This document shows positions 4,021 through 56,934 of a stretch of 64,000 nucleotides of DNA, one piece after another. Below the pieces are notes generated by a model, which ran no database searches, had not been told where the DNA came from, and was given only the letters and a program-made list of their open reading frames with translations. Within the stretch, counting starts at the first letter, position 1. Each line of letters starts with the position of its first letter. The DNA lies in the NCBI RefSeq assembly GCF_055900595.2, contig NZ_CM148325.1; one strand, given 5' to 3'. The position numbers and the translations under genes are program-made.

Positions 4021-5085
4021 TTAGCGGTGATACTGTTCAGACAGGCGATGCACAGCCTCCACAAACACGCCAGCATGTTCTGGCGGCACATCCTGATGAA
4101 TGCCGTGACCAAGGTTAAATACATGACCTTCGCCGTGACCGAAACCTGCAAGTATAGTCGCGACTTCTTCTTCAATGCGGGCAGGTGGCGCGTACAGCAT
4201 CGACGGATCCATATTACCCTGCAGCGCGACTTTATTGCCCACGCGGCGGCGCGCATCGGCGATATCCGTTGTCCAGTCGAGGCCCAGCGCATCGCAACCC
4301 GTTTCCGCCATAGCTTCCAGCCACTGTCCACCGCCTTTGGTAAACAGGGTGACCGGTACACGGCGACCGTCGTTTTCACGCAGTAAACCATCAACTATTT
4401 TATGCATGTAATAGAGCGAGAACTGTTGATAATCGCGCCCGGTGAGCACGCCGCCCCAGGTATCGAAGATCATCACGGCCTGAGCACCAGCTTTAATTTG
4501 CGCATTCAGATACAAAGTGACGCTTTTCGCCAGTTTATCGAGCAGAGCGTGCAGCGCCTGTGGATCGGCATACATCATCTTTTTGATCACGGTGAACGCT
4601 TTGCTGCTGCCACCTTCCACCATATAGGTCGCCAGCGTCCACGGGCTGCCGGAAAAACCAATCAGCGGCACTTCGCCTTTCAGTTCGCGGCGAATAGTAC
4701 GCACCGCGTTCATCACATAACCCAGCTCATCTTCCGGGTCCGGAATTGGCAGTTTATCAACGTCAGCTTTGCAGGTGACTGGCGAGGTAAAACGCGGACC
4801 TTCTCCGGCTTCAAAATAGAGCCCTAACCCCATCGCGTCCGGCACGGTGAGGATATCGGAAAAGAGGATCGCCGCATCCAGCGGATAGCGACGCAGCGGT
4901 TGCAAAGTCACTTCGCACGCCAGCTCTGCATTTTTGCACAGCGACATAAAATCGCCCGCCTGGGCGCGCGTGGCTTTATATTCCGGTAGATAGCGACCCG
5001 CCTGGCGCATCATCCATACTGGAGTGACATCAACGGGCTGGCGCAGCAGCGCCCGCAGATAACGATCGTTTTTGAGTTCGGTCAT
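4021..5085 (-). CDS. hemE: Uroporphyrinogen decarboxylase
   Basis: 354-aa [39 protein letters not shown]... (URO-D signature). Confidence 0.95.
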
Positions 5086-5124
5086 TTTGGCTGTTCCTTA
5101 GTGCGTCAGGCGGTCAGTGTATCA

Positions 5125-5898
5125 TCACTCATACTCTGCCCGACACATCGCCACCGTATCTTCTATCAGACGGCGCGCCACGGTGCCGGGCGGCGGAAGT
5201 AACGGTAAATCATCGTAGCGATACCAGTTCGCCTCGAGCAGCTCTTTCGGATCAATCACGATGTCGCCGCTATCATATTCCGCCATAAATGCGGTCATCA
5301 GCGACTGGGGAAACGGCCACGGCTGGGAAGTCACGTACCGCAAGTTTTTAACTTTAATTCCGCTCTCTTCCATCACTTCCCGCGCGACCGCCTGCTCGAG
5401 GGTTTCGCCCACTTCGACGAATCCGGCAAGTACCGTATGGACACCGTTACGATGGCGGGTATGCTGGGCGAGGAGGATCGAATCATCGCGACGGATGGCA
5501 ACAATAATGCAGGGGGCGATTTGCGGGTAGTAACGCTCACGGCAATGGCTGCACAGCATCGCCCATTCGGTTTTGCTCGGATACATTTCATGCCCGCAGT
5601 AACCACAGTATTTATGCGATCGGTAAAACTCCGCCAGTTGCACGCCACGTCCGGCCAGTTGAAACAGCCCAACATCGAGATCAATGACCTGACGTACCGA
5701 CCCCATATCGTGACGCCGCTGCTGTTGTACTAACCAAACAGGTTCCCCCTGCCATTCGCCGATTTGTAGTGCGCGCTGACCCACAAGATCGAAATTTGCC
5801 GCTTCGCCATATGGCAATTCTCCCTTCGGCAACCATAATTTTTGTTCATGGCTGACGACCCACCAGCCGTGATCTAATTTTTCAATTATACGATCCAT
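5125..5898 (-). CDS. nudC: NADH pyrophosphatase (Nudix hydrolase)
   Basis: 257-aa ORF with C4 zinc motif (CGYCGHEM...CSHC) and Nudix box ([22 protein letters not shown]). Confidence 0.93.
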
Positions 5899-20885: not shown

Positions 20886-20921
20886 AAAAAGGCTGGTGAC
20901 TAAAAAGTCACCAGCCATCAG
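20886..20921 (-). terminator. rplL-rpoB intercistronic attenuator/terminator
   Basis: Minus strand GGCTGGTGACT-TTTT-AGTCACCAGCC followed by TTTTTGCGCTG, between rplL stop and rpoB. Confidence 0.75.
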
Positions 20922-39460: not shown

Positions 39461-39467
39461 AGCCCAT

Positions 39468-39489
39468 GCCGGATGCGCTAGCATCCGGC
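39468..39489. terminator. Hairpin between convergent trmA and yijD
   Basis: Perfect palindrome GCCGGATGC-GCTA-GCATCCGGC. Confidence 0.6.
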
Positions 39490-39498
39490 ATGAACCGA

Positions 39499-43235: not shown

Positions 43236-43347
43236 GAAACGGAGCGGCACCTCTTTTAACCCTTGAAGTCACTGCCCGTTTCGAGAGTTTCTCAACTCGA
43301 ATAACTAAAGCCAACGTGAACTTTTGCGGATCTCCAGGATCCGCTTT
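43236..43347 (+). ncRNA. oxyS: OxyS small regulatory RNA
   Basis: GAAACGGAGCGGCACCTCTTTTAACCCTTGAAGTCACTGCCCGTTTCGAGAGTTTCTCAACTCGAATAACTAAAGCCAACGTGAACTTTTGCGGATCTCCAGGATCCGCTTTTTTTT, divergent from oxyR and ending in a terminator hairpin plus U-run. Confidence 0.93.
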
Positions 43348-43391: not shown

Positions 43392-44675
43392 TTACTCAAT
43401 CCGATCTTTGACAATAAAGAAGTAACACAGCGCCCCGGTGAACGTCACACAGGCCGCGATAACCAGCGCCAGATTAAACGAGTGCGTGGTATCCACTACC
43501 CAACCGGTTACGATCGGAGCAAAGGAAGCAAAAACAAAACTGCCAAAGTTTTGAATCCCGGCGATGGAAGCCACTTTTGTTTCTGACACCATCACCTGCA
43601 CCAGTCCCCATGCAGATGTTCCCGCGAAATGCACGCAGAACAGCGCCATTGAGATAAACGCTACAGCCTGGGCTGGCGAGGAGGATTGCACGACCAGCAA
43701 CGTGCCTAATGCCGACATCATCAAACCGCAGACAATAGCCGTTTTACGCGTCTTCGCCAGGTCGTAGCCTTTTTTCGCCAGCCGATCGACAACAATACCG
43801 TTAACCCACATCCCGACCGCCGCCGCGAGGAAAGGAATCGCCGCCACCCAACCGGTTTTCGCCAGACTGAAGCCTTGCTCGGCTTGTAAATAACCGGGTA
43901 ACCACGCGATGTAGAGCCAACCGGTATAATTGACGCCAGAGAAACCTAAAATCATCCCCCAGGTTGTCCGATGCTTAAACAGCGCCAGCCACTCGCTAAA
44001 TTGTAATTGTGGACGCGGTTTAACCGGCGCGGAGAGATAGGTCCGTTCTTCGTCGGTCAGGACAAACTGCGCCCGGTTGCGATACCACGCGTACCAACAG
44101 ATCCCAACCAGAATCCCCGCCACGCCGATGATGACGAACATTGCCCGCCAGCCCCATGCCAGCTGCATCAATACAAGAGCAGGAGGCGCAATAGCCTGAC
44201 CGATAACGGTAGATGAGTTAAAAATCCCCAGCGCCGTGCCGCGTTCTTTTTGCGCATACCAGTCGGTGATCGACTTTACTCCCGCAGGCATAAATGGCGC
44301 TTCGCCAATACCCAGACCGATACGCATTAAAATAAAGTGGCTAAAAGAATTAACCATTCCTGTTAATGCCTGCATTAATGACCAGAATATTAAGCCTGCA
44401 CCTAAAACTATTCGTGGGCCAAAGCGGTCTAGCAAAATACCGGAAGGGAGTTGTGAAAAACCATAAGACAGAGAAAATGCAGAAAGCAAAACGCCAAATT
44501 CTGTCGCCGATAATCCTAACTCGCCACGAATCGCTTCGCCTGCCACGCTCAATGACGAACGGTCGAGGAAATTAACGATCCCCGCCATAAATAATAAAAC
44601 CAGCGTTACTGTCTGAATACGACGAATCCGTTGCGGTTTATTACCCGCAACACTGGTTGACACATCAACGTCCAT
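43392..44675 (-). CDS. MFS transporter, anion:cation symporter (ACS) family; predicted sugar-acid (aldonate/hexuronate-type) permease
   Basis: 427-aa ORF with 12 predicted TM segments and MFS motifs (DRFGPR; DgoT/ExuT-like); accessory relative to K-12 gene order. Confidence 0.8.
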   Translation of the reverse strand: MDVDVSTSVAGNKPQRIRRIQTVTLVLLFMAGIVNFLDRSSLSVAGEAIRGELGLSATEFGVLLSAFSLSYGFSQLPSGILLDRFGPRIVLGAGLIFWSLMQALTGMVNSFSHFILMRIGLGIGEAPFMPAGVKSITDWYAQKERGTALGIFNSSTVIGQAIAPPALVLMQLAWGWRAMFVIIGVAGILVGICWYAWYRNRAQFVLTDEERTYLSAPVKPRPQLQFSEWLALFKHRTTWGMILGFSGVNYTGWLYIAWLPGYLQAEQGFSLAKTGWVAAIPFLAAAVGMWVNGIVVDRLAKKGYDLAKTRKTAIVCGLMMSALGTLLVVQSSSPAQAVAFISMALFCVHFAGTSAWGLVQVMVSETKVASIAGIQNFGSFVFASFAPIVTGWVVDTTHSFNLALVIAACVTFTGALCYFFIVKDRIE

Positions 44676-44741
44676 TTTTAGCTCCTTGAGCGGAATTAAT
44701 CGATTTGCTGACTATTCAGAAAATAATTAAGCGAACCGTTA

Positions 44742-45956
44742 TTACCAGTTCCACAATGTGCCATCTTCCAGTCGTGCGACGGGGAGATACGCCGGGTCAT
44801 ACGGATATTTCGCCGCCAGTTTCTCATCGAAAGAAATACCCAGCCCCGGTTCATCGCCTGGGTGCATATAACCTTCATCGAAGCGCCAGCTGTGCGGGAA
44901 GACTTCAAGCATTTGTTCGGAATAGCCCATGTACTCCTGAACACCAAAGTTTGGCACCCAGAGGTCAAAATGCAGCGCCGCCGCATGACAAACAGGCGAT
45001 AAATCTGAAGGGCCATGCGAACCGGTACGTACCTGATAAAGCGATGCAAAATCGGCAATCCGTCGCATCCCGGTAATGCCGCCTGCATGGGTAATCGTCG
45101 TGCGAATATAGTCAATCAGCTGCTCTTCGATTAACTGCTTGCAGTCCCAGATACTGTTAAACACTTCACCGACCGCAATCGGCGTCACAGTATGCTGGCG
45201 AATCAGACGAAAACATTCCTGGTTCTCGGCAGGCGTCGGATCTTCCATCCAGAACAGGCGGTAATCCTCTATGCTCTTCCCAAAGCGTGCCGCTTCGATA
45301 GGAGTCAGGCGATGGTGCATGTCATGCAACAGATGTTCGTTAAAACCGAACTTATTACGCACCGCTTCAAATAACTTCGGTGTAAAATCGAGATACTTTT
45401 CTGAAGACCACAACTGCTCTTCCGGCCACAGGCCTTTGGTTGCCGGTTCATACGCCAGTCCTTTGCCCTTCGCCAGGCCATAAGTGGTTTGCATACCCGG
45501 TACACCGCACTGCACACGAATCGCCTTAAAGCCCATCTGCTGGTGCTTTGCATAGTCTTCAAGGACTTCATCAATCGTGCGCCCGGTGGTGTGGCAATAA
45601 ACCATCACGCCTTCACGAGAAGCCCCACCAAGCAGTTGATACAATGGCATATTTGCCGCTTTGGCTTTGATATCCCACAACGCCATATCAATGGCAGAAA
45701 TGGCCGACATCGTGACGGGGCCACGTCGCCAGTAAGCACCTTTATAAAAGAATTGCCAGATATCTTCGATACGACTGGCATCGCGGCCAATTAATTGTGG
45801 ACAAAGATGATCTTTCAGATAAGAAGCGACCGACAATTCGCGACCATTTAATGTGGCATCTCCCAATCCACAAAGTCCGCTTGCAGTGGTTATTTTAAGC
45901 GTAACGAAATTACGTCCTGGGCAAGTAACAAAAACATCTGCAGCAATAATTTTCAT
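44742..45956 (-). CDS. Enolase-superfamily dehydratase, mannonate dehydratase (ManD)/RspA-like subgroup
   Basis: 404 aa from [24 protein letters not shown]...; AGGAG RBS 9 nt upstream; ORF track begins 20 codons earlier. Confidence 0.8.
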
Positions 45957-46346
45957 TATTGCAATCTCCTGTGTTGTAAATAGACGCTTCAAACTTAATT
46001 TTACGCCTACTACCATACAAGAGAGAAAGAGCGATTATTCAACCGTGATCACATTAAAAATAAAAATTTCCACCGAGGAACAAAAATATCCTCAAATCTC
46101 ACCTACACTATTAACTACCATCGTTAAAACAACGTGTTAAATAATCACATAACAAATTCCTTTAAGGAAGGGAGTTATAACAACAACAAAAGATAATCAT
46201 ATTTTACTTAATTCAATACGTATCGATAGGTTTATTTAAAAAGGATTTTTCGGAATGAGAGATGAAAAGAAGATACACAAGCAGGAAGAAATACGATTAA
46301 TATTAGTTGCGGTAAGGGTAGCCGTTCCTCCCTTCCGCAACCCATT

Positions 46347-46443
46347 AACCGTTGAAGTCACAGACTATTTCAGGCATTTCTCAACTCAAAATAACGACAG
46401 CCAACGTGAACTTTATGGCTCTCCAGGATCTGCTTTGTTTTCC
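46347..46443 (+). repeat. Diverged copy of the oxyS 3' portion (oxyS-like remnant), direct orientation
   Basis: ACCGTTGAAGTCAC...TTTCTCAACTC...AGCCAACGTGAACTTT...CTCCAGGATCTGCTTTGTTTT aligns with oxyS 43258-43347 at roughly 80% identity by eye; terminator stem not conserved. Confidence 0.7.
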
Positions 46444-46444
46444 A

Positions 46445-47923
46445 TCAAACAACGGAGCTCAGCGCACTGGCTACCTGTTTAAAGCGAGCAAACCGTCGCC
46501 TGAGCATGTGTGCTTTTTCTACATTCGGTTCAAGACGAATCACGTTGAGCTGCGTAGCCTTCATGGCCTGTTTGAATCCAGAATAAGCCCCTCCTCCTAC
46601 TGCCGCACACATTGCAGCCGCTCTACAACCTGACTGTTCAATATCGACAATTTCAAGAGGCATTTTGCTGGCATCACAAAACATCTGCATCCAGATTCTG
46701 GAATGCGTTGGCCCGCCAGAGAAACGAATCGTTTGCAATGACTTATCAATCTCAATAAGACGGTCCTGATGCAACAAATGAGAAAAGACAATGCCCTGAT
46801 AAATAGCGTACACCAAATCTTCTCTTTTATGATGCCCACACAGCCCCAAAAATCCCCCGCTTAATGCCTCATGGTAATTCGAGCCAAACAACCACGGGAA
46901 AAAGAGAATATCATTCTGCTTCTCATACCCTCGTTCCACCCACTCATTAATCACCCGATAACTGTCAGGAAGATCCGGTAAAAATTGCTGCAAGAACCAT
47001 GTCAAATTACTGGCTGATGTAGGGCTTCCCTCATGGGCGAAAAATGTACCTGGAATGCTAAATTTCCCCCATACATAGGGATAATCAGAAGGAATAATGC
47101 GATCAAAGATTCGCGTTGCAATTGACCAGGTGCCAGCAACCGCACTTAACGTTGTACTGTCATAGATGCCAGAAGTGAGCGCCGCACCAACGACATCAAA
47201 AACACCACCAAAAACAGGCGTTCCGGCGAGAAGCCCACATTGGCTGGCTGCTTCAGATGTCACAAACCCAGCTAAATCAGCGGAGCCAATAATATCGGGA
47301 ACCTTACCCGCAACTTCCTTAATCTCAAATAGGCGAAAAAGTTCAGCATCATAAGCACTGGTATATTGATTATAAAAATTACTGCCTGAAATATTGGTTT
47401 CTTCACAAGCCAGTTTGCCAGTAAGCCGTGAACGTATGTAATCATGAACCATCAAAATGGTTCCGATGCGGCCATAATTGTCAGTCTCATGTTTTTTCAA
47501 CCAATGCAATAGTGCTACAGGGTGCGATGGCCAGAGCTGTTGCAGACTACGGTGATAACTTTCGCGGTCAATTCCTTGTTCTTTCCAGCTTGCAACCAGT
47601 TGTTGTGCGCGAGAATCAGAGGAAACAATGCCGTGTCGTAAGGGCTTACCTTGCCGGTCGAGCAGGTACAAACCTTTACCATGAGCAGAAAAACTGATGC
47701 CATCAATCTGACTCGCAGTAATATTGTTATCTGACATCGACAGTGAAATGACCTGGCACGTTACCTTCCATAACGCCTCCATGTCGCGTTCGCAAAAACC
47801 AGGACATGGGCTTAACAGAGGTAACGCCTGCGAAGAGACACCTATTTCACGTCCTTCTGCCGTATAAATTCCCGCTTTGGTTTCTGTACCACCTAAATCG
47901 ACACCAATAAAATACCGCTCCAT
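46445..47923 (-). CDS. FGGY-family carbohydrate kinase, L-xylulose/3-keto-L-gulonate kinase (LyxK)-like
   Basis: 492-aa ORF; N-terminal FIGVDLGGTETKAGIY and C-terminal FSGGPTHSRIWMQM actin-fold motifs. Confidence 0.8.
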   Translation of the reverse strand: MERYFIGVDLGGTETKAGIYTAEGREIGVSSQALPLLSPCPGFCERDMEALWKVTCQVISLSMSDNNITASQIDGISFSAHGKGLYLLDRQGKPLRHGIVSSDSRAQQLVASWKEQGIDRESYHRSLQQLWPSHPVALLHWLKKHETDNYGRIGTILMVHDYIRSRLTGKLACEETNISGSNFYNQYTSAYDAELFRLFEIKEVAGKVPDIIGSADLAGFVTSEAASQCGLLAGTPVFGGVFDVVGAALTSGIYDSTTLSAVAGTWSIATRIFDRIIPSDYPYVWGKFSIPGTFFAHEGSPTSASNLTWFLQQFLPDLPDSYRVINEWVERGYEKQNDILFFPWLFGSNYHEALSGGFLGLCGHHKREDLVYAIYQGIVFSHLLHQDRLIEIDKSLQTIRFSGGPTHSRIWMQMFCDASKMPLEIVDIEQSGCRAAAMCAAVGGGAYSGFKQAMKATQLNVIRLEPNVEKAHMLRRRFARFKQVASALSSVV

Positions 47924-47939
47924 GATCCCTCCTTAGTTT

Positions 47940-48803
47940 CTAAATATTATCCCAGCCGGCAAAGCGCATTTTCTCTTCAATCCATTGACGTGCATGAATA
48001 ATTTCTAATAGAGGTTCCGTCGCTTTTTCTGTCCACATTTCTATCAGAAACGTTCCGCGATAATTAAGATTACGCAGGATCTTAAATAATTTAATAAAAT
48101 CTACACACCCTTCACCAAAAGGAACGTCACGAAATTGCCCTGGAGAATCAGGCGTTACTGGGTACGTATCTTTAAGATGGATTGCGGCAATTCGATCAAT
48201 CCCCTTTACCAGCTCACTTTCCAGTTCATTACCCCATGCGGTCAGATTGCCAACATCCGGATAAACGGTAAACCAAGGGGAATTAATTTTTGTATCCAGG
48301 ACTTTCCATTTACTAATAGAATTAATAAATGGCGTATCCATGATCTCTACAGCACACATAACTTGTGCCGCTGCGGCCTGTTCAGCTGTCCAGGCCATCG
48401 CATCTTCAAACCAGGCGATAGTTTCTTCATTCTGCGGCTCATAATAAACGTCATAGCCTGCCAGTTGGATTGTTCGAATCCCCAAATCCTGCGCCAGGCG
48501 TAACGCCTTCAACATAATCGTACGTGCCTGCTGACGAGTATCTCTATCATGGCTACCAAATGGAAAACGCCGGTGAGCAGACAGGCACATTGTCGGAATA
48601 CGGATCCCCGTTTGCTGAATGGCGCTAATAAGCTCCATACGCTCGGTGAGCGACCAGTCCAGGCGGGCGAGTCGTTCATCATTCTCATCTACCGACATCT
48701 CAACAAAATCAAAACCGCAAGATTTAGCCAGGGCTAGTTTCTCTACCCAACTGGTATTCCTGGGTAGCGCTTTTTCATAAATACCTAACGGGTGGCGTCG
48801 CAT
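47940..48803 (-). CDS. Sugar-phosphate 3-epimerase, UlaE/SgbU-like (L-ribulose-5-P / L-xylulose-5-P 3-epimerase family, xylose-isomerase-like TIM barrel)
   Basis: 287-aa ORF with LGIYEKALP...GFDFVEMSVDE...LAGYDVYYE...GEG.VDF motifs; start overlaps upstream permease stop. Confidence 0.8.
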   Translation of the reverse strand: MRRHPLGIYEKALPRNTSWVEKLALAKSCGFDFVEMSVDENDERLARLDWSLTERMELISAIQQTGIRIPTMCLSAHRRFPFGSHDRDTRQQARTIMLKALRLAQDLGIRTIQLAGYDVYYEPQNEETIAWFEDAMAWTAEQAAAAQVMCAVEIMDTPFINSISKWKVLDTKINSPWFTVYPDVGNLTAWGNELESELVKGIDRIAAIHLKDTYPVTPDSPGQFRDVPFGEGCVDFIKLFKILRNLNYRGTFLIEMWTEKATEPLLEIIHARQWIEEKMRFAGWDNI

Positions 48804-49849
48804 TATTTTCCCTCACGAGTGATCAATTGTTGTTGAAAGATTTTCCGGCTCTTATTCATGTCACGCTGCAACTGCCATTTTTGTTTGATGAATTTAAATG
48901 CCAGTGCGGCGATCAATGTGATCCCCCATACCGCCAGATTGAAATGCAAACTAAGTCCCAACAGACTAAGGCCGGTAGCAATAACCTGAAGCACAAGTAA
49001 GGCACAAAAAACATGACTGACTTTACCCGCCCCACCGAATGGATCTGTGCCTCCCAATACAATTGCAAGAACCGTCAAGAGCAGATAGGAATCGCCATAG
49101 CCCATACGCGCCGAATTAAATCGCGCGAGCATAATAAGACCTGCTAATACACACAACATGCTGGATATAGCATATATAGCAATTAATACGCGGTCGGTGC
49201 GAATACCGCTAAACCATGTGGCGTTAATATTACTGCCACACATATAAATCGTTTTTCCCGTACGGGTTTTGCCGAGGAACAGAGCTAAAGCAACGGTGGT
49301 GACGATAAAAATTATCATCGGTACTGGGATCCCCATGATAACTTCAGACCCAATACTGCGGACTACTGGTGGCATACCACTTAAAGCTGCCCCCTTAGTC
49401 AGGTAAATACCGATACCACTAATAATGGTCATGCTACCCAATGTGACCAAAATAGGGTGAGCGCCTATATGAGAAATAATTGACCCAGTAATAGCTCCAA
49501 TGATGATGGCAATAAGCATCGCCCCGACAATAGCCAGGAAGAGCCAAAACAACTGACTACCTGTAGATGCATCTGCGGGTACATATTGAATCAACAGCCA
49601 GGCCATAAACAGGCTGGTCAGATTCGCAGTACCGATGATTGCCAGATTGAGCCCCCCGCTCAACATGGGTATAAACATCGCAAACGTGAGCAACCCAAGC
49701 TCTGGCAATTGAAATGCAATGCTCAGAAAAGTATTGCCGGTGAAAAAACGCCCCGGCATTACCAGACTAAATAACACCACCGCAATAAAACATATTGATA
49801 ATAAGCCTGAACTGGTACCATCTAGTGGAAAAAATATCCGCTTGTTCAT
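48803..49849 (-). CDS. Sugar ABC transporter permease (CUT2 / RbsC-like)
   Basis: Polytopic membrane ORF; start taken at MNKRIFFPLDG with GGAGG RBS 6 nt upstream (ORF track starts 10 codons earlier). Confidence 0.8.
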   Translation of the reverse strand: MNKRIFFPLDGTSSGLLSICFIAVVLFSLVMPGRFFTGNTFLSIAFQLPELGLLTFAMFIPMLSGGLNLAIIGTANLTSLFMAWLLIQYVPADASTGSQLFWLFLAIVGAMLIAIIIGAITGSIISHIGAHPILVTLGSMTIISGIGIYLTKGAALSGMPPVVRSIGSEVIMGIPVPMIIFIVTTVALALFLGKTRTGKTIYMCGSNINATWFSGIRTDRVLIAIYAISSMLCVLAGLIMLARFNSARMGYGDSYLLLTVLAIVLGGTDPFGGAGKVSHVFCALLVLQVIATGLSLLGLSLHFNLAVWGITLIAALAFKFIKQKWQLQRDMNKSRKIFQQQLITREGK

Positions 49850-49862
49850 TTCGATCCTCCCG

Positions 49863-50855
49863 TTAGACGAAACCAACATCAGTTTCTTTACGTTTTTTGT
49901 AATGGGTCACACAAATCGCCGAGACAATAACCACTCCAATAACGATATTGACGAAATAACTCGAGATGCCAATCAAATTAAGGCCGTTTTTAAGAATACC
50001 GATAAGAAATACGCCCATAAGCGTACCAATGACCGTACCACGTCCGCCTGATAAACTGGCACCGCCCAATACCGCTGCAGCCAGCACATCCAACTCTCCG
50101 CCAACCAATGCATTCGGCACAACTTCACTCATACGGTAAGCTTGCAGCATTCCACCAATTGCTGCAGCGGCACCAAGATAACCATAAGCAAACAGATAAA
50201 TTAGCGACACCCGAATCCCAATACGTCTTGCTGATTCGGTATTCCCTCCCACGGCATAAAGCTGACGCCCAATATGGGTTTTGTTCATTATCATCCACGT
50301 CAGAAATGCCATTCCCAGCATAACCACTAACGGTAATCCGATCTGGTAATCTTCTCCGCCAAATTCAAAACTCAGGAAAGAACGCTGCGTAATCCACCAA
50401 TCCGGTAAATCGTAAATACTGTGGCCATTAGTCAACCACATCAACATACCGAACAGTAGCGACTGCATACTAATCGTAATGATGATGGAAACGACATTAA
50501 GGTAATAAATAAGAATAGCGTTTATCAAACCAAAAATGATGCCAAGAAAAACAGCAAACACCAGACAGAAAAATGGATTTGATAGCGTTTCATTAAGCAG
50601 TAACGACGCCACAACATATTGCACAACCGAAGCTACTGCTGCAAAAGAGATATCAATTCCGCCAGTAACCAATACGACAAATAATCCGAGGGCGAAAATA
50701 CCCGTTACGGCATAACTTTCCGAGAGATCGAGCAAGTTCTGTATTGATAAAAACTCATCGCTCATGATGGAAAAAAATACCAGCATGAGAACAATGACCC
50801 ATCCTAACCAAGCTTCGACTGAACGAGGAAACCGCAGCCGCATAAAGCTAACCAT
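49863..50855 (-). CDS. Sugar ABC transporter permease (CUT2 / RbsC-like)
   Basis: 330-aa polytopic membrane ORF; start overlaps the ATPase gene stop by 8 nt. Confidence 0.8.
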   Translation of the reverse strand: MVSFMRLRFPRSVEAWLGWVIVLMLVFFSIMSDEFLSIQNLLDLSESYAVTGIFALGLFVVLVTGGIDISFAAVASVVQYVVASLLLNETLSNPFFCLVFAVFLGIIFGLINAILIYYLNVVSIIITISMQSLLFGMLMWLTNGHSIYDLPDWWITQRSFLSFEFGGEDYQIGLPLVVMLGMAFLTWMIMNKTHIGRQLYAVGGNTESARRIGIRVSLIYLFAYGYLGAAAAIGGMLQAYRMSEVVPNALVGGELDVLAAAVLGGASLSGGRGTVIGTLMGVFLIGILKNGLNLIGISSYFVNIVIGVVIVSAICVTHYKKRKETDVGFV

Positions 50856-52365
50856 TAATCACCTCCGCCAACTGCTGCTCGGTATAATTCGAAGGCAACA
50901 GCTCATTAATAATCTTTCCGCGCTTCATATGAAAAATACGATCGCAGTTATAATAAGCTTCTGGTGCTTCATCAGTAATTAATATCACTGAAATACCCAC
51001 ACCTGAAAGCCGATGAATAAGCTGGTAAATACTATCTTTTGCGCCAATATCTACACCTACCGTTGGCGCATCCAGAATTAAAACCTTAGGTCGTGTTAAA
51101 ATCCATTTAGCCAGGACAACCTTTTGTTGATTGCCGCCAGATAGCGTTGAAAGTGGATTATTTGGATCGGTGACTTTAATATCCAAATCCTGGATCCACT
51201 CCTTGACTAAGGTTTCTTTTCGATTTTCATCAATAAACCCCGATGCCGTCTTTAAACGATCCAGAATCGAGAGCACCATATTATCGCTGATAGATTGGGG
51301 TAATACGGCCCCCAGTGTCAGGCGATCTTCTGAAACATATGCTATTCCCAGTTTTACCGCATGCGTGTTGTCTTTAATTGTAACGGGCTTACCTTCCAGA
51401 TAAATATCACCACTATCTGGTCGAGTAATACCGAAAAGACTCAATGCTAATTCAGTTCTCCCCGCACCAAGTAAACCACACAATCCCAGAACCTCGCCCT
51501 GGTGTAGTTTTAGAGAAACATCTTCAAATTGCCCTTTTCTGCATAATTTGTTTAGTTCAAGGACTACTTTGCCTTCAACGCTATTTGGTAGCTTCTTCTG
51601 GTGGACTATAGTTTTTCCGGTCATTAACTCAGTAATATCGCCCGGAGAAAGTTGATTGGCAGCCCACGTTCCAATTATCTCTCCATCACGGATGACCGTA
51701 ATCCGATCTGAAATTTCCTTAACTTCATCAAGGCGGTGGCTAACAAAAACTACGGTAATATTTTTATCGCGTAAGTAATTCACTGTGCGTAGTAATTGAT
51801 TAACTTCTGTACGCGTCAATGATGCCGTTGGCTCGTCCATGATGACTAAGCGGGCATCGGCAATCAGAGCCCGGCAAATCGCGACCTGTTGGCGTTGTGC
51901 AATCGGCAAATGTTGTACTAACGCATCAGGATCGAGATTGAATTGCAGCTCCTGAATTATTTTCTGCGATACATCTCGAAGTTGTTTTTTTCTGTGCAGC
52001 CCTAAATATCCCTTCAGGTTGTATTCAAAAGCGATATTTTCAGCAACAGAAAGATTTGGGAATAAAGAAAGATCCTGATATATCACCTGAATACCCAGTT
52101 CCCGAGCTTTATCAGGAGAAAGACGAGTCCAGGACTTACCATCTATAATAATTTCACTTCCCGAATCAGGGACATAAACACCACACAGCGTTTTGATCAG
52201 AGTACTTTTACCACACCCATTCGCACCAGCAAGACAATGAACCTCACCTTTATTTAAGGTAAGATTGATATTCTTTAGAGCCCTATGGCCACCGAAACTT
52301 TTCGTTAGTGACCTTAGCGTCACTAATGGTTGCTCCGCATTCTTCTCTATAATATGAGGCATCAT
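50848..52365 (-). CDS. Sugar ABC transporter ATP-binding protein with two fused nucleotide-binding domains (RbsA/MglA-like)
   Basis: 505-aa ORF; Walker A GANGCGKST in the N-terminal domain, ABC signature LSGGNQQKVVLAKW in the second. Confidence 0.85.
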   Translation of the reverse strand: MMPHIIEKNAEQPLVTLRSLTKSFGGHRALKNINLTLNKGEVHCLAGANGCGKSTLIKTLCGVYVPDSGSEIIIDGKSWTRLSPDKARELGIQVIYQDLSLFPNLSVAENIAFEYNLKGYLGLHRKKQLRDVSQKIIQELQFNLDPDALVQHLPIAQRQQVAICRALIADARLVIMDEPTASLTRTEVNQLLRTVNYLRDKNITVVFVSHRLDEVKEISDRITVIRDGEIIGTWAANQLSPGDITELMTGKTIVHQKKLPNSVEGKVVLELNKLCRKGQFEDVSLKLHQGEVLGLCGLLGAGRTELALSLFGITRPDSGDIYLEGKPVTIKDNTHAVKLGIAYVSEDRLTLGAVLPQSISDNMVLSILDRLKTASGFIDENRKETLVKEWIQDLDIKVTDPNNPLSTLSGGNQQKVVLAKWILTRPKVLILDAPTVGVDIGAKDSIYQLIHRLSGVGISVILITDEAPEAYYNCDRIFHMKRGKIINELLPSNYTEQQLAEVING

Positions 52366-52392
52366 AATATTCCTGAATACGACTAAAGGAAT

Positions 52393-52412
52393 TCCGGGTC
52401 AAATTTGACCCG
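52393..52412. promoter_or_regulatory. Perfect 20-bp palindrome (intercistronic stem-loop) between binding-protein and ATPase genes
   Basis: CCGGGTCAAATTTGACCCGG within the 63-nt gap. Confidence 0.5.
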
Positions 52413-52428
52413 GTGATTTACAGTAAAA

Positions 52429-53433
52429 TTACAAGCCTAGCTTCACTAAACGTCGTGTATTTTCAAGATCGAGCTTTTCTGGATTATCACTATAAATAGT
52501 GTTGTTATTAACCTTGATCTCGCCCATATCACCGATTTTTACACCGTCTTTAATAGGTTCACCGTTCATCATTGCCGTCGCAACCTGGACAAAAACCTTA
52601 CCCGCAATCATAGGGTTTGAAATATATCCCCCATCAATGGCACCTTTTTCGAGTAGCTTAATTCCCTGACCTGGAGTGAAGGTTCCAAAAACGCAAATTG
52701 CATCATTTTTCTTCCGCTTATCAATAGCACGCCCCGCACCAATTGGTCCTTGTGAACCAAATGACATAATGCCTTTAAGATCTTTATATTTAGACATTAA
52801 ATCGTTCGTCGTGCGCATTGAATCATCCACCGACTCAGCAACACCAAAACGATCTTCAACCAACGTCATATTTGGATAATGTTCTTTTTGATAGGCAATC
52901 GCGGCATTGGCCCAGTCATTTACCAAAGGCACAGTCAGACTGCCGACAAACATGGCGTATTTACCTTCTTCGCCCATACACTTCGCCATATCTTTCATAT
53001 GATTGGCACCCATTGTCTGGGTATTTAACAACTCAAAATCCCAATCTGCATTTTTTTGATCTGGTGATTCGTGGGTAATAACTTTAATACCGGCTTCTTG
53101 TGCACGCTTAAGTACAGGTTCAAGAACCTTTGCATCGTTAGGAACAACACCAATAACATCCACTTTTCGTGCAATTAAATCTTCAATCGCCCGAACCTGT
53201 TCAGCTGGATCTGCCGTTGTAGGGCCGACCTGCCATGCATCAACCCCCAATAGTTTTCCTTCATTTTTAATGCCTTGTTCCATCACATTAAACCAGGGAA
53301 TTCCACCGACTTTTACTACTACCCCCATCGTAAAAGGTTTATTCGCTTTTTGTGATGTTACAGTCTGATCAGCCCATGCAGCAGTGGAAGATAATACGGT
53401 AGCAATAAGGCAGGGTAAGATTAATTTTTTCAT
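52429..53433 (-). CDS. Periplasmic sugar-binding protein (type I PBP, RbsB-like)
   Basis: 334-aa ORF with signal peptide MKKLILPCLIATVLSSTAAWA; first gene of the ABC operon. Confidence 0.85.
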   Translation of the reverse strand: MKKLILPCLIATVLSSTAAWADQTVTSQKANKPFTMGVVVKVGGIPWFNVMEQGIKNEGKLLGVDAWQVGPTTADPAEQVRAIEDLIARKVDVIGVVPNDAKVLEPVLKRAQEAGIKVITHESPDQKNADWDFELLNTQTMGANHMKDMAKCMGEEGKYAMFVGSLTVPLVNDWANAAIAYQKEHYPNMTLVEDRFGVAESVDDSMRTTNDLMSKYKDLKGIMSFGSQGPIGAGRAIDKRKKNDAICVFGTFTPGQGIKLLEKGAIDGGYISNPMIAGKVFVQVATAMMNGEPIKDGVKIGDMGEIKVNNNTIYSDNPEKLDLENTRRLVKLGL

Positions 53434-53461
53434 CGTAATTTCCTTAAGAAATAGTTCAGGT

Positions 53462-53493
53462 GTCAGGAAAACTCGATATAATATCGACCTGAC
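53462..53493. promoter_or_regulatory. Nested inverted repeats in the binding-protein promoter region, candidate operator for the adjacent DeoR regulator
   Basis: GTCAGG-AAAAC-TCGATATAATATCGA-C-CTGAC, 36 nt upstream of the binding-protein start. Confidence 0.35.
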
Positions 53494-53555
53494 TATTTAT
53501 ATAATTTATAATCCCTTAGGCATTGATTAATAATTTAGACAATAAATAACGCCTA

Positions 53556-54365
53556 TTATTTATCAACCTCCACAATGTTTAATTGTGGAAATTGTGTTCG
53601 ATACCGAGTATCTGTACAAACATTAGTCACCAGAATATCGATTTCATCCAGCGTGCATATTTTACTAAATGCATACTGTTCAAACTTAGTGGAGTCGACC
53701 AGCAATATTTTTTGTCCTGACACCTGAAGCATCACCTGTTTAAGTCTGGCATTAATTTCACTGCCATCGCGGACACCATTCCCCAGATTCAACCCCTGGC
53801 ATGAAAAGAAAAAACTGTTGATTTGAAAATTTCGGATCGCACTCTCTGCAACCGGGCCATGAAAATCATCATGTCGCTCAGAATACTCACCACCGATACC
53901 AATAATTCGAACTCGATCACGGCAAGCTAACGCCTGAATTATCCGTAATGAATTTGTAACTACGGTAACATCTATATCGGGAATTTGACGAGCTAAAAAC
54001 CAACAAGTACTACTGTTATCCATTAAAATACAATCACCAGGGTGAATAAATTGCAATGCGGCCTTCGCAATTCTGGCTTTTATATCAGGATTTTCTTCAG
54101 TCCGTTTACGGAATGATTCCGCACGATCGATACTATTATCTTGCCACGCATTATCGGCGAGCATAACCGGAGCGCTATCAGATGAATCCAGAGCGACCGC
54201 GCCACCAAAGCTACGGATTAACTTTTTGTTGCGCTCCAGTACCGTTAAATCCCGACGAATTGTCTCAGGAGACGCTTTAAATAATCGTGATAATTCAGTT
54301 ACCCGCACAGCACCTTGTTTTTGTACATGTGCGCATATCATTTTATGGCGCTCTGCCTGCAACAT
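53556..54365 (-). CDS. DeoR-family transcriptional regulator
   Basis: 269-aa ORF with N-terminal HTH (VRVTELSRLFKASPETIRRDLTVLE) and C-terminal DeoR sugar-binding domain. Confidence 0.85.
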   Translation of the reverse strand: MLQAERHKMICAHVQKQGAVRVTELSRLFKASPETIRRDLTVLERNKKLIRSFGGAVALDSSDSAPVMLADNAWQDNSIDRAESFRKRTEENPDIKARIAKAALQFIHPGDCILMDNSSTCWFLARQIPDIDVTVVTNSLRIIQALACRDRVRIIGIGGEYSERHDDFHGPVAESAIRNFQINSFFFSCQGLNLGNGVRDGSEINARLKQVMLQVSGQKILLVDSTKFEQYAFSKICTLDEIDILVTNVCTDTRYRTQFPQLNIVEVDK

Positions 54366-54744
54366 AGTATCGGTCCGTTATTATCAAATTAGCATGCTTA
54401 TATAATTAACTGTTCCCTCATAAAATAAAGTGATAGGAATCAAGATTCATTTTATAATTATAATCGCAAACAGGAATGGTGATCTTTATCACAAATTAAA
54501 TTGAGAACACTCTACTATTTGACATTACTTTGAGATATCGGTCACTAAATAAGTCTTATTCTGCCATCTAACGAAAAATTTAAATACAAAAACAAAAATA
54601 ATCGGGCATAGCAATCGCTTCCATTCATGACCGAATACGCCCGAATAAAACCGTTTATACCCACTTATCCTCTTTCGTTGCCTTCTTACATGCCTTGAAT
54701 ATTTTACATTTCTTATATTCAGCGTAATTTAGGAAACATAATTT

Positions 54745-54816
54745 ATGAGCAAAAAAAGCCCAAACTCAAAAGTTAAAGTTTATTTATATAATACATACAG
54801 ATTATCGTGGAGTTAA
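54745..54816 (+). CDS. Candidate 23-codon upstream ORF ([23 protein letters not shown])
   Basis: AGGAAA 8 nt before the ATG; TAA stop ends 2 nt before the 4-epimerase ATG; no homology claimed. Confidence 0.25.
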
Positions 54817-54818
54817 AA

Positions 54819-55511
54819 ATGGATATGCTAAAGGAAAAAGTTCTTGCTGCGAATTTATCATTACCCCTTCATCAGTTAGTGACGTTTACCTGGGGAAATG
54901 TTAGTGGTGTTGATCGCGAAAAAGGTGTCATGGTTATTAAACCTTCTGGGGTCGAATACAGCCAAATGGGCATTGCAGATATGGTGGTAGTGGATTTACA
55001 AAGTGGTGAAGTTATTGATGGACACAGGAAACCCTCTTCAGACACCGATACTCATCTGGCGCTATACCGTGCTTTCCCGGATATTGGTGGTATCGTTCAT
55101 ACCCATTCCCGACACGCCACAATATGGGCTCAGGCCGGAAAAGATCTCACGGCCTTTGGGACAACCCACGCTGATTATTTCTACGGCACTATCCCCTGTA
55201 CACGCCCCATGAAGGATGACGAAATTAATGGACAATATGAATATGAAACGGGGCGAGTGATTATTGAAACGTTCAGACAACGAGAAATATCTCCCGCTGA
55301 CATTCCGGCTGTTTTAGTAAACAGTCATGGCCCCTTTGCCTGGGGAACTGATCCCGCGAACGCCGTGCATAACGCCGTTGTACTTGAAGAAATTGCCTAT
55401 ATGAATCTCTTTACACAACAACTACAGCCCCATCTTACGGCTATTCAACAGCCTCTACTGGATAAGCATTTTTTACGCAAGCATGGTGCCAATGCTTATT
55501 ACGGGCAGTAA
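54819..55511 (+). CDS. Class II aldolase-family L-ribulose-5-phosphate 4-epimerase (AraD/SgbE/UlaF-like)
   Basis: 230 aa from [34 protein letters not shown]...; GGAG RBS 6 nt upstream; HTHS and HADYFYG motifs; ORF track uses a GTG at 54807. Confidence 0.85.
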
Positions 55512-55560
55512 CCCTCTTAGCATGGCCTGGCGTTTTGCCAAGCCATAAATCGCCTAAGAC

Positions 55561-56934
55561 TTACTCCAACCGCGCCTGCGCAAAAGCAATCGCCTGCGCC
55601 ACCTGCTGCGGTGAGACGCCGCCTTTTGCCGCACGCTTGTCGAGGCACGATTGCAGCGACAGAATCGGATAGACATCTTCGCCAATCACCTGACTGAATT
55701 TCTGCAACTCACTGAGCGGCAGATCTTCCAGCGGTTTGCCCTGACGAATGGCTTCCACCACCGCTTCACCAACAATATGGTGCGCCTCGCGGAACGGCAC
55801 ACCTTTCGCCACCAGGTAATCCGCCAGTTCAGTGGCGTTCGCATACCCCTGCTGCGCCGCTTCCTGGCAACGTGGGCGTTTCACCTGAATGCCGTCCAGC
55901 ACCAGCGCCGCCATATGCAGGCAGTCCAGCCAGGTATCGAGCGCGTCGAACAGACCTTCTTTGTCTTCCTGCATATCTTTGTTATAAGCCAGCGGCAAAC
56001 CTTTCAGCGTCATCATCATGCCAGTCAACGCGCCCTGAACACGACCGCATTTACCGCGAATCAGCTCCAGCGCATCCGGGTTTTTCTTCTGCGGCATTAA
56101 TGATGAACCGGAAGTCACGCGATCAGAAAGCTCCACAAAACCCGCTTCGCCGGTGTTAAAGAAAATCAGATCTTCGGCAAAACGCGACAAATGCACCATA
56201 CCGATAGCGGCGGCAGAAAGCAGTTCCAGCACGTGGTCGCGGTCAGAAACGCTGTCGAGACTGTTACGGGTCGCCGAAGCAAAGCCCAGCCAGCCTGCTA
56301 ACTGTTCACGGTCGATTTCATAGGCCGTTCCCGCTAGTGCGCCACAGCCTAACGGGCTGACATCCAGACGCTTAAGCGCATCCTGCAAACGGCTTTCATC
56401 ACGCGCCAGCATCTCAACATAGGCCAGGCACCAGTGCGCGAACGTCACCGGTTGGGCGCGTTGCAGGTGAGTGTAACCTGGCATTACCGCGTCCTGATTG
56501 TTTTGTGCGGTTTCCACCAGCGCCGATTGCAGCTGTCGGTTAGCCGTCAGCAACTCGCTAACGGTATCCTTGCACCACAGTTTCAGATCGGTCGCCACCT
56601 GATCATTACGGCTACGCCCGGTGTGCAGTTTTTTGCCTAACTGGCCCACTTTGTCGATCAGTTTGCCTTCCACCCAGCTATGGATATCTTCGGCGTCGCT
56701 TTCAAGAATTTGTTGTGGCCTGGCGCGAACATCTTCCAGCAGCACATTGAGCGCCTCTTCCAGTTGCACCTGTTCTTCTGCGGTTAACACGCCTACCGTT
56801 ACCAGCGCTTTGGACCAGGCCACAGAGCCAACAATATCCTGCTCCGCCAGACGGTAATCAAAGCGCAGTGAGTCGTTGAATTGTTTAAACCGTTGATCTG
56901 CTGCCTGGGTAAAACGCCCGCCCCAAAGTGCCAT
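55561..56934 (-). CDS. argH: Argininosuccinate lyase
   Basis: 457-aa [47 protein letters not shown]... Confidence 0.96.

Follow-up and report, generated by a model that had tools for sequence, protein, structure and literature searches.

In E. coli, the structure in the malE-malF spacer blocks PNPase and RNase II after an endonucleolytic cut, and the half-lives within malEFG are 3.5 vs 1 min (PMC5927463; the protective structure is that of Newbury et al. 1987, as summarised there). Four further E. coli ABC operons have been described in which the stabilised cistron is always that of the binding protein (PMC5927463). In Ruminiclostridium cellulolyticum, stem-loops after binding-protein genes act as internal terminators low in U and so set the stoichiometry of the importers (Wu et al. 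2022, PMC9045158), and at least 15 stem-loops are predicted after 5'-located binding-protein genes in E. coli K-12 (PMC9045158). Palindromic repeats are found in comparable places, as operons of Yersinia and other Enterobacterales contain ERIC/IRU elements (reviewed in PMC2229807 and PMC3184786). The first-pass annotation of the DNA studied here remarked that hairpins at this position of ABC operons commonly stabilise the binding-protein transcript or attenuate readthrough, and a gain of binding-protein mRNA over translocator mRNA through hairpins in this setting is indeed documented (PMC5927463, PMC9045158).

The window that we analysed is a 64-kb stretch of E. coli DNA carrying the true oxyS, rRNA, a btuB riboswitch and argCBH. 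The importer operon lies in an island of low GC content (42-46%, vs about 50-56% around it) at approximately 44000-56000, between argH and oxyR. Of 5426 complete E. coli genomes, 146 carry it. Atlantibacter (95%) and Citrobacter (93%) have the nearest orthologs of the binding protein, and an ortholog from a metagenome likewise adjoins argH. The locus runs from a divergent araD-like L-ribulose-5-phosphate 4-epimerase gene through genes for a DeoR regulator, a binding protein, an ATPase, two permeases and an L-ribulose-5-phosphate 3-epimerase to an FGGY kinase gene, a layout that PGAP also gives on an identical E. coli chromosome. All genes from the regulator to the kinase are on the minus strand. 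The DeoR/GlpR-family protein (53556..54365), encoded directly upstream of the binding-protein gene, is likely the transcriptional regulator of the operon. The binding protein (52429..53433, stop codon TAA at 52429-52431) is a periplasmic sugar-binding protein of 334 aa that matches PF13407, is annotated by PGAP and is RhaS/LsrB-like, RhaS and LsrB being its best NCBIfam matches, both far under their cut-offs. The ATPase (50848..52365, ATG at 52363-52365) is a two-domain sugar ABC ATPase of 505 aa by NCBIfam and PGAP, with XylG, AraG, RbsA and YtfR all scoring similarly and none over its cut-off. Permease 1 (49863-50855) and permease 2 (48803-49879) are assigned by profile match and PGAP, and the L-ribulose-5-phosphate 3-epimerase (47940-48803) and FGGY sugar kinase (46445-47923) are encoded by distal genes of the same operon. 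Two start codons in this set can be drawn differently: the ATPase frame begins ATGATG, and its second ATG (52360-52362) is the start in Citrobacter amalonaticus and the metagenome ortholog, while permease 2 starts at 49849 in PGAP (348 aa) and at 49879 if its first in-frame ATG is taken (358 aa).

The LyxK/SgbU/SgbE route of E. coli is an established pathway, and analogy with it suggests that the operon may take up L-xylulose or a related pentulose; a search of the literature found nothing specific on this operon. The 122-nt spacer between the regulator and binding-protein genes (53434-53555, minus strand) holds a nested inverted repeat, GTCAGG-TCGATATTATATCGA-GTTTT-CCTGAC, a candidate for either a DeoR-family operator or a weak terminator of the regulator gene. 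Just past the kinase gene, at 46312-46434 on the plus strand, is a second oxyS-like sequence, about 70% identical to the true oxyS (43236-43345, plus strand); it scores 30 bits with the Rfam OxyS model, under the gathering score, against 139.5 bits for the true gene, and manD and an MFS transporter gene lie between the two. This copy looks like either the oxyS end of a donor genome brought in with the island or a duplication through nested insertions.

Between the binding-protein stop and the ATPase start there is, as first annotated, a gap of 63 nt (52366-52428). The perfect 20-bp palindrome reported within it is real, although its coordinates, given as 52393-52412, were one base off: CCGGGTCAAATTTGACCCGG occurs once in the window, at 52394-52413 on the plus strand, and no other perfect palindrome of 16, 18 or 20 nt is present in the 64 kb. 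Folding of the minus-strand RNA, which the annotation had proposed, places an intercistronic hairpin at 52394..52413 in the minimum free energy (MFE) structure, with a 5' arm CCGGGUCA (52413-52406), a loop AAUU (52405-52402) and a 3' arm UGACCCGG (52401-52394). The stem comprises 8 bp, six of them G-C, closed by the 4-nt loop, with a stability of -13.9 kcal/mol that none of 300 base shuffles of the 63-nt spacer matched (mean -4.3, best -12.9); folding of a 96-nt region gave z = -3.1 relative to dinucleotide shuffles. RNA pairing is restricted to the 8 bp of CCGGGUCA/UGACCCGG, and the perfect 20-bp appearance arises because the loop AAUU is self-complementary by chance, which it is in E. coli and in no other ortholog. 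The 20-bp palindrome is thus present as sequence, but the unit that is conserved is the 8-bp stem. At 8 bp and -14 kcal/mol, the E. coli stem is modest beside paired REP structures, and Rfam 15 returned no match at 52366-52428, either at E<=1 or at the gathering thresholds. Elsewhere in the window, at 39465-39492, is a perfect 12-bp inverted repeat (CATGCCGGATGC/GCATCCGGCATG, 4-nt loop) that is probably REP-like in sequence, judged by the REP consensus; it is unrelated to the spacer hairpin.

The hairpin divides the spacer into two unequal parts. Its foot stands 15 nt past the binding-protein UAA, and this linker (UUUUACUGUAAAUCA, 52414..52428, minus strand) would, we infer, leave barely enough room for the stem to form next to a ribosome that is terminating. 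Its end lies 28 nt ahead of the ATPase AUG, and the A/U-rich segment in between (AAUUCCUUUAGUCGUAUUCAGGAAUAUU, 52366..52393, minus strand) contains a weak U-rich tract, UUCCUUU, and the ATPase Shine-Dalgarno sequence AGGA (52374-52371). The same segment has three matches (GAAUU, GUAUU and AUAUU) to the RNase E motif RN↓WUU, as taken from PMC5927463, and may be cleaved by that enzyme, the matches being a weak pointer because such motifs are common in A/U-rich RNA. The flanking genes are co-directional and no promoter-like site was found in the spacer; the binding-protein and ATPase genes are probably co-transcribed.

Among the 146 E. coli genomes there are two allele groups with 3-4 differences in 141 nt around the site. 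All variants have one of these differences within the spacer, strain MG32 has a second one there, and none falls in the stem. As these alleles are too close to inform, orthologs from other genera were fetched, using binding-protein homologs with their contigs and a single scan across 100,044 species genomes. A binding protein that is at least 82% identical is encoded at twenty-odd loci, and the four examined for gene order (Yersinia, Pantoea, Brenneria and a metagenome contig) all share the same arrangement, including the DeoR-family regulator gene. The orthologs yielded 14 distinct simple-spacer sequences from at least seven genera, covering E. coli, Citrobacter (three loci), Atlantibacter, the metagenome contig, Pantoea coffeiphila, Erwinia (two loci), Brenneria, Serratia, Affinibrenneria and Yersinia (enterocolitica, alsatica, massiliensis and similis).

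Simple spacers range from 59 to 147 nt, and in each of the 14 sequences this slot holds a GC hairpin that fits CCGG[G/A]NN-loop-NN[C/U]CCGG and is part of the MFE fold. The distance from stop codon to stem is about 9-24 nt (77 nt in Y. similis), and the loops vary in sequence and in length (4-8 nt). The four basal pairs, CCGG/CCGG, are invariant in 14/14, and the other four of the eight change on both sides (G-C/A-U; C-G/U-G/G-C/U-A; C-G/A-U; G-C/G-U/U-A), while the rest of the spacer diverges past alignment across genera. In an alignment that was anchored on the stem and therefore favours structure, 96.4% of stem cells are paired, vs 17-49% when the partners are slid by one to three columns, and the covariation score was reached by none of 500 shuffles. 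Because the 14 sequences represent about four to five clades, independent events are fewer than cells. Eight cells are wobbles, all of them G·U on the sense strand and arising from at least five independent events, and none is A·C, a mismatch that would be expected equally often under antisense pairing or pure DNA dyad symmetry; pairing therefore works in the sense RNA only. Since the loops differ, the inner pairs compensate and G·U is confined to the sense strand, it is, to judge from these alignments, a stem in the RNA that is conserved, rather than a 20-bp palindrome, an operator in the DNA or a repeat of the REP type. What shows as a palindrome in the DNA is a stem-loop of the polycistronic mRNA transcribed from this sugar ABC-importer operon, and its standing as a functional mRNA hairpin is well supported by the conservation of structure.

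Outside the simple-spacer orthologs, the slot is filled in other ways. Six Providencia orthologs (L022-L026 and L028; after position 4993) have spacers of 142-231 nt in which long imperfect palindromes replace the simple hairpin. Of the 35 positions of the ERIC core, 30 match in the P. heimbachae insert; an ERIC identity for all of the Providencia inserts was rejected, as the others are different long palindromes. In Y. pestis NCTC5923 (L019) the spacer reaches 859 nt (5006-5864) because an IS200/IS1541-like element with a Y1 transposase frame has inserted, 7 nt past the conserved hairpin and inside its T-rich tail, between CCTTATT and TTTTCGACC; the insertion presumably cuts the binding-protein gene off from the remaining genes of the operon.

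More distant relatives of the transporter were also compared. In 48 of 59 such loci (57-66% identity) the two genes abut or overlap (-4 to +4 nt) with no hairpin, and the idea that the hairpin is universal in the transporter family was rejected on this count; it is dispensable for this type of transporter. The remaining 11, from Tolumonas, Planctomycetota metagenome-assembled genomes (MAGs), Rhizobium and Solirubrobacterales, have a spacer, and all 11 carry a strong GC hairpin in it (-11 to -30 kcal/mol), mostly without a U-tract. A sister clade (L031-L078) that includes Pantoea, Serratia, Rahnella, Pectobacterium and Dickeya, with binding proteins 59-66% identical, has its stop and start codons overlapping or within 4 nt of each other, leaving no room for a hairpin. 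The reading as an mRNA hairpin stands as far as a selected sense-strand stem-loop with compensatory changes in at least seven genera is concerned, and does not extend to the transporter family in general.

Most likely, as far as these comparisons indicate, the hairpin serves to keep the binding-protein message above that of the membrane components. As to how, we lean, with moderate confidence, towards a barrier to 3' exonucleases that would stabilise the binding-protein message, as at malE-malF. RNA polymerase would mostly read through the stem because the U-tract is poor. RNase E would then cut the full-length message, either within the A/U-rich leader or within the ATPase/permease portion, which is poorly protected, and 3'-to-5' exonucleases (PNPase, RNase II) would degrade back and stall at the foot of the stem, leaving a stable, translatable monocistronic binding-protein mRNA. 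Binding protein would in this way come to exceed the membrane translocator in amount, as in malEFG. Termination at the stem may occur as well, in a minority of polymerases, and both routes would push expression the same way. The interpretation offered in the first-pass annotation is the textbook one, given the malEFG and Ruminiclostridium precedents, and the comparative data fit it.

A possible but less probable main mechanism is a leaky Rho-independent terminator, at which a fixed fraction of polymerases would stop and protection of the 3' end would be a by-product. The conservation of structure fits such a terminator equally well, and the site is the top terminator-like match in a 10-kb scan (eight pairs, six GC, loop of 4, tail AATTCCTTTA), although terminator-like sites in the region are not above shuffles (11 vs 9.6). 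Low-U internal terminators after binding-protein genes also have a precedent, as experiments in Ruminiclostridium showed that they set ABC importer stoichiometry, and they were predicted for E. coli (PMC9045158). What bears on the choice is the tail. In E. coli this is AAUUCCUUU, whose two residues beside the stem are A; a lenient scan accepts it (5 T in 8 at offset 2), but its nT is 0.90 and its discriminant -33 by an approximate d'Aubenton-Carafa-type formula, used with modern ViennaRNA energies. Two controls in the same window, the rrn-distal terminator and a hairpin at 20891-20916, scored +15 and +28. Even poorer tails follow the stem in Brenneria (GCTACTCA, -36), the metagenome ortholog (CATCCTTA, -44) and Citrobacter/Atlantibacter (AAATCCTT, -30 to -34), and the tail is poor in 9 of 14 orthologs overall. 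T-rich tails are found in Pantoea coffeiphila (TTTATTCA, +12), Y. enterocolitica and Y. alsatica (TCTTATTT, -10 in Y. enterocolitica), Serratia (TCTTGGTTATT, -6) and an Erwinia MAG. Given the poor tails in E. coli, Brenneria, the metagenome ortholog and Citrobacter/Atlantibacter, it is the stem, not the tail, that is conserved, and because the stem is kept and the U-tract is not, a 3'-exonuclease barrier fits the E. coli allele better than a terminator. Attenuation of readthrough, the other role that the first-pass annotation had allowed, is consequently the weaker of its two options for the allele with AAUUCCUUU. In E. coli the contribution of leaky termination may be slight at most; it is probably more important in Pantoea, Yersinia and Serratia, which have better U-tracts.

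It is improbable that the element is instead a translational device, in which spacer and hairpin would uncouple translation of the ATPase from that of the binding protein and a second helix would mask the ATPase ribosome-binding site, lowering ATPase synthesis and leaving mRNA levels unchanged. The helix in question is predicted to pair UCCU (52389-52386) weakly with AGGA (52374-52371) on the minus strand; the MFE fold pairs AUUCCU with AGGAAU beside the main hairpin, the helix is present in the consensus fold of five sequences of the E. coli/Citrobacter/Atlantibacter clade, and the overlapping stop and start codons of the hairpin-less relatives imply tight coupling there. However, the helix overlaps sequence that is needed anyway as a Shine-Dalgarno element, and it shows no covariation because its 4 bp are invariant. 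Occlusion of the Shine-Dalgarno sequence or start codon is not consistently predicted outside the E. coli/Citrobacter clade, even with long-range helices included, and a translational role leaves the conservation of the GC stem unexplained.

A more speculative proposal, which we hold to be comparably unlikely, is that a specific factor recognises the foot of the stem, be it an RNA-binding protein or a conditional step of antitermination or processing. It is prompted by the invariance of the basal CCGG/CCGG where loop, inner stem and spacer are free to vary, and by the refilling of the slot in Providencia. The ratio of binding protein to translocator would then be regulated and not fixed, and a single transporter family would have two interchangeable designs for its stoichiometry, a spacer with a hairpin on the one hand and overlapping genes on the other.

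That the palindrome is a neutral relic of a mobile or repetitive REP/MITE-like element, with no role of its own, is very unlikely. Its slot does hold long palindromic inserts in Providencia, one with an ERIC-like core, and an IS200-like element lies 7 nt past the stem in Y. pestis. Nevertheless, a REP or other dispersed repeat is ruled out by copy number, as the window has a single match even at 3 mismatches and each of the 146 island-bearing E. coli genomes (of 5426) has the hairpin at one locus; the '2 places' that were reported presumably arise because the palindrome matches itself on either strand. There is also no Rfam match, and the stem has been kept by compensatory changes across genera in a spacer that otherwise diverges. 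A DNA site with dyad symmetry that binds a dimeric protein, such as the DeoR-family regulator encoded nearby if it acted as a roadblock, is scarcely credible and was rejected despite the perfect 20-bp symmetry in E. coli and a regulator gene about 1.1 kb upstream. The spacing of the CCGG cores varies by up to 4 nt with the 4-8-nt loops, inner positions differ between genera, and the symmetry is disrupted at T·G positions, which can pair in the sense RNA only, while A·C does not occur. In addition, half-site 8-mers of CCGGGTCAAA are absent from the promoter regions 53434-53555 and 54366-54806, and a place between two co-transcribed cistrons would be unusual for an operator.

A hairpin that skews the ratio of binding protein to membrane components is a well-known and ordinary arrangement, and this one carries little weight for general biology, such hairpins having been known since malEFG and catalogued genome-wide. 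Its value lies in being a clean comparative case, in which a stem is conserved rather than a U-tract or a sequence motif, and in which sister lineages display different solutions: some have a simple hairpin, some have long palindromes derived from repeats, and some have no hairpin but overlapping genes. A small gain in annotation is made for an uncharacterised accessory uptake operon of the pentulose/L-xylulose type in E. coli, Yersinia and relatives.

Set beside the known systems, the spacer hairpin shares its position with the malE-malF structure, as both immediately follow, on the 3' side, a 5'-located binding-protein gene of an ABC importer operon. Both are stem-loops of the sense RNA, and the proposed consequence is the same, namely that exonucleases stall and the binding-protein mRNA outlives the translocator mRNA. 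The malE-malF structure, however, consists of REP repeats, a dispersed family, whereas the spacer hairpin is single-copy, unrelated in sequence and shorter (8 bp). With the Ruminiclostridium terminators it shares a single stem-loop directly after the binding-protein gene, with no antiterminator partner, a GC-rich stem, few and scattered U residues in the tail, and a proposed constitutive, fixed ratio. Those elements have longer stems (optimum about 11 bp) and measured termination, in contrast to an 8-bp stem whose tail starts A, A and at which termination is predicted to be weak. Canonical E. coli Rho-independent terminators have in common with it a GC-rich 8-bp stem and 4-nt loop, but the spacer hairpin has no U run right after the stem and sits inside an operon, 28 nt before a start codon. 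ERIC/IRU elements, on which De Gregorio and co-workers reportedly obtained functional data in 2005, with changes possible in the levels of flanking cistrons, resemble it in being structured palindromic RNA of intercistronic spacers, and an ERIC-like core occupies the very same slot in P. heimbachae. ERICs are multi-copy mobile repeats of about 70-127 bp, whereas the E. coli hairpin is a single-copy element of 20 nt that does not resemble the ERIC core (score 11).
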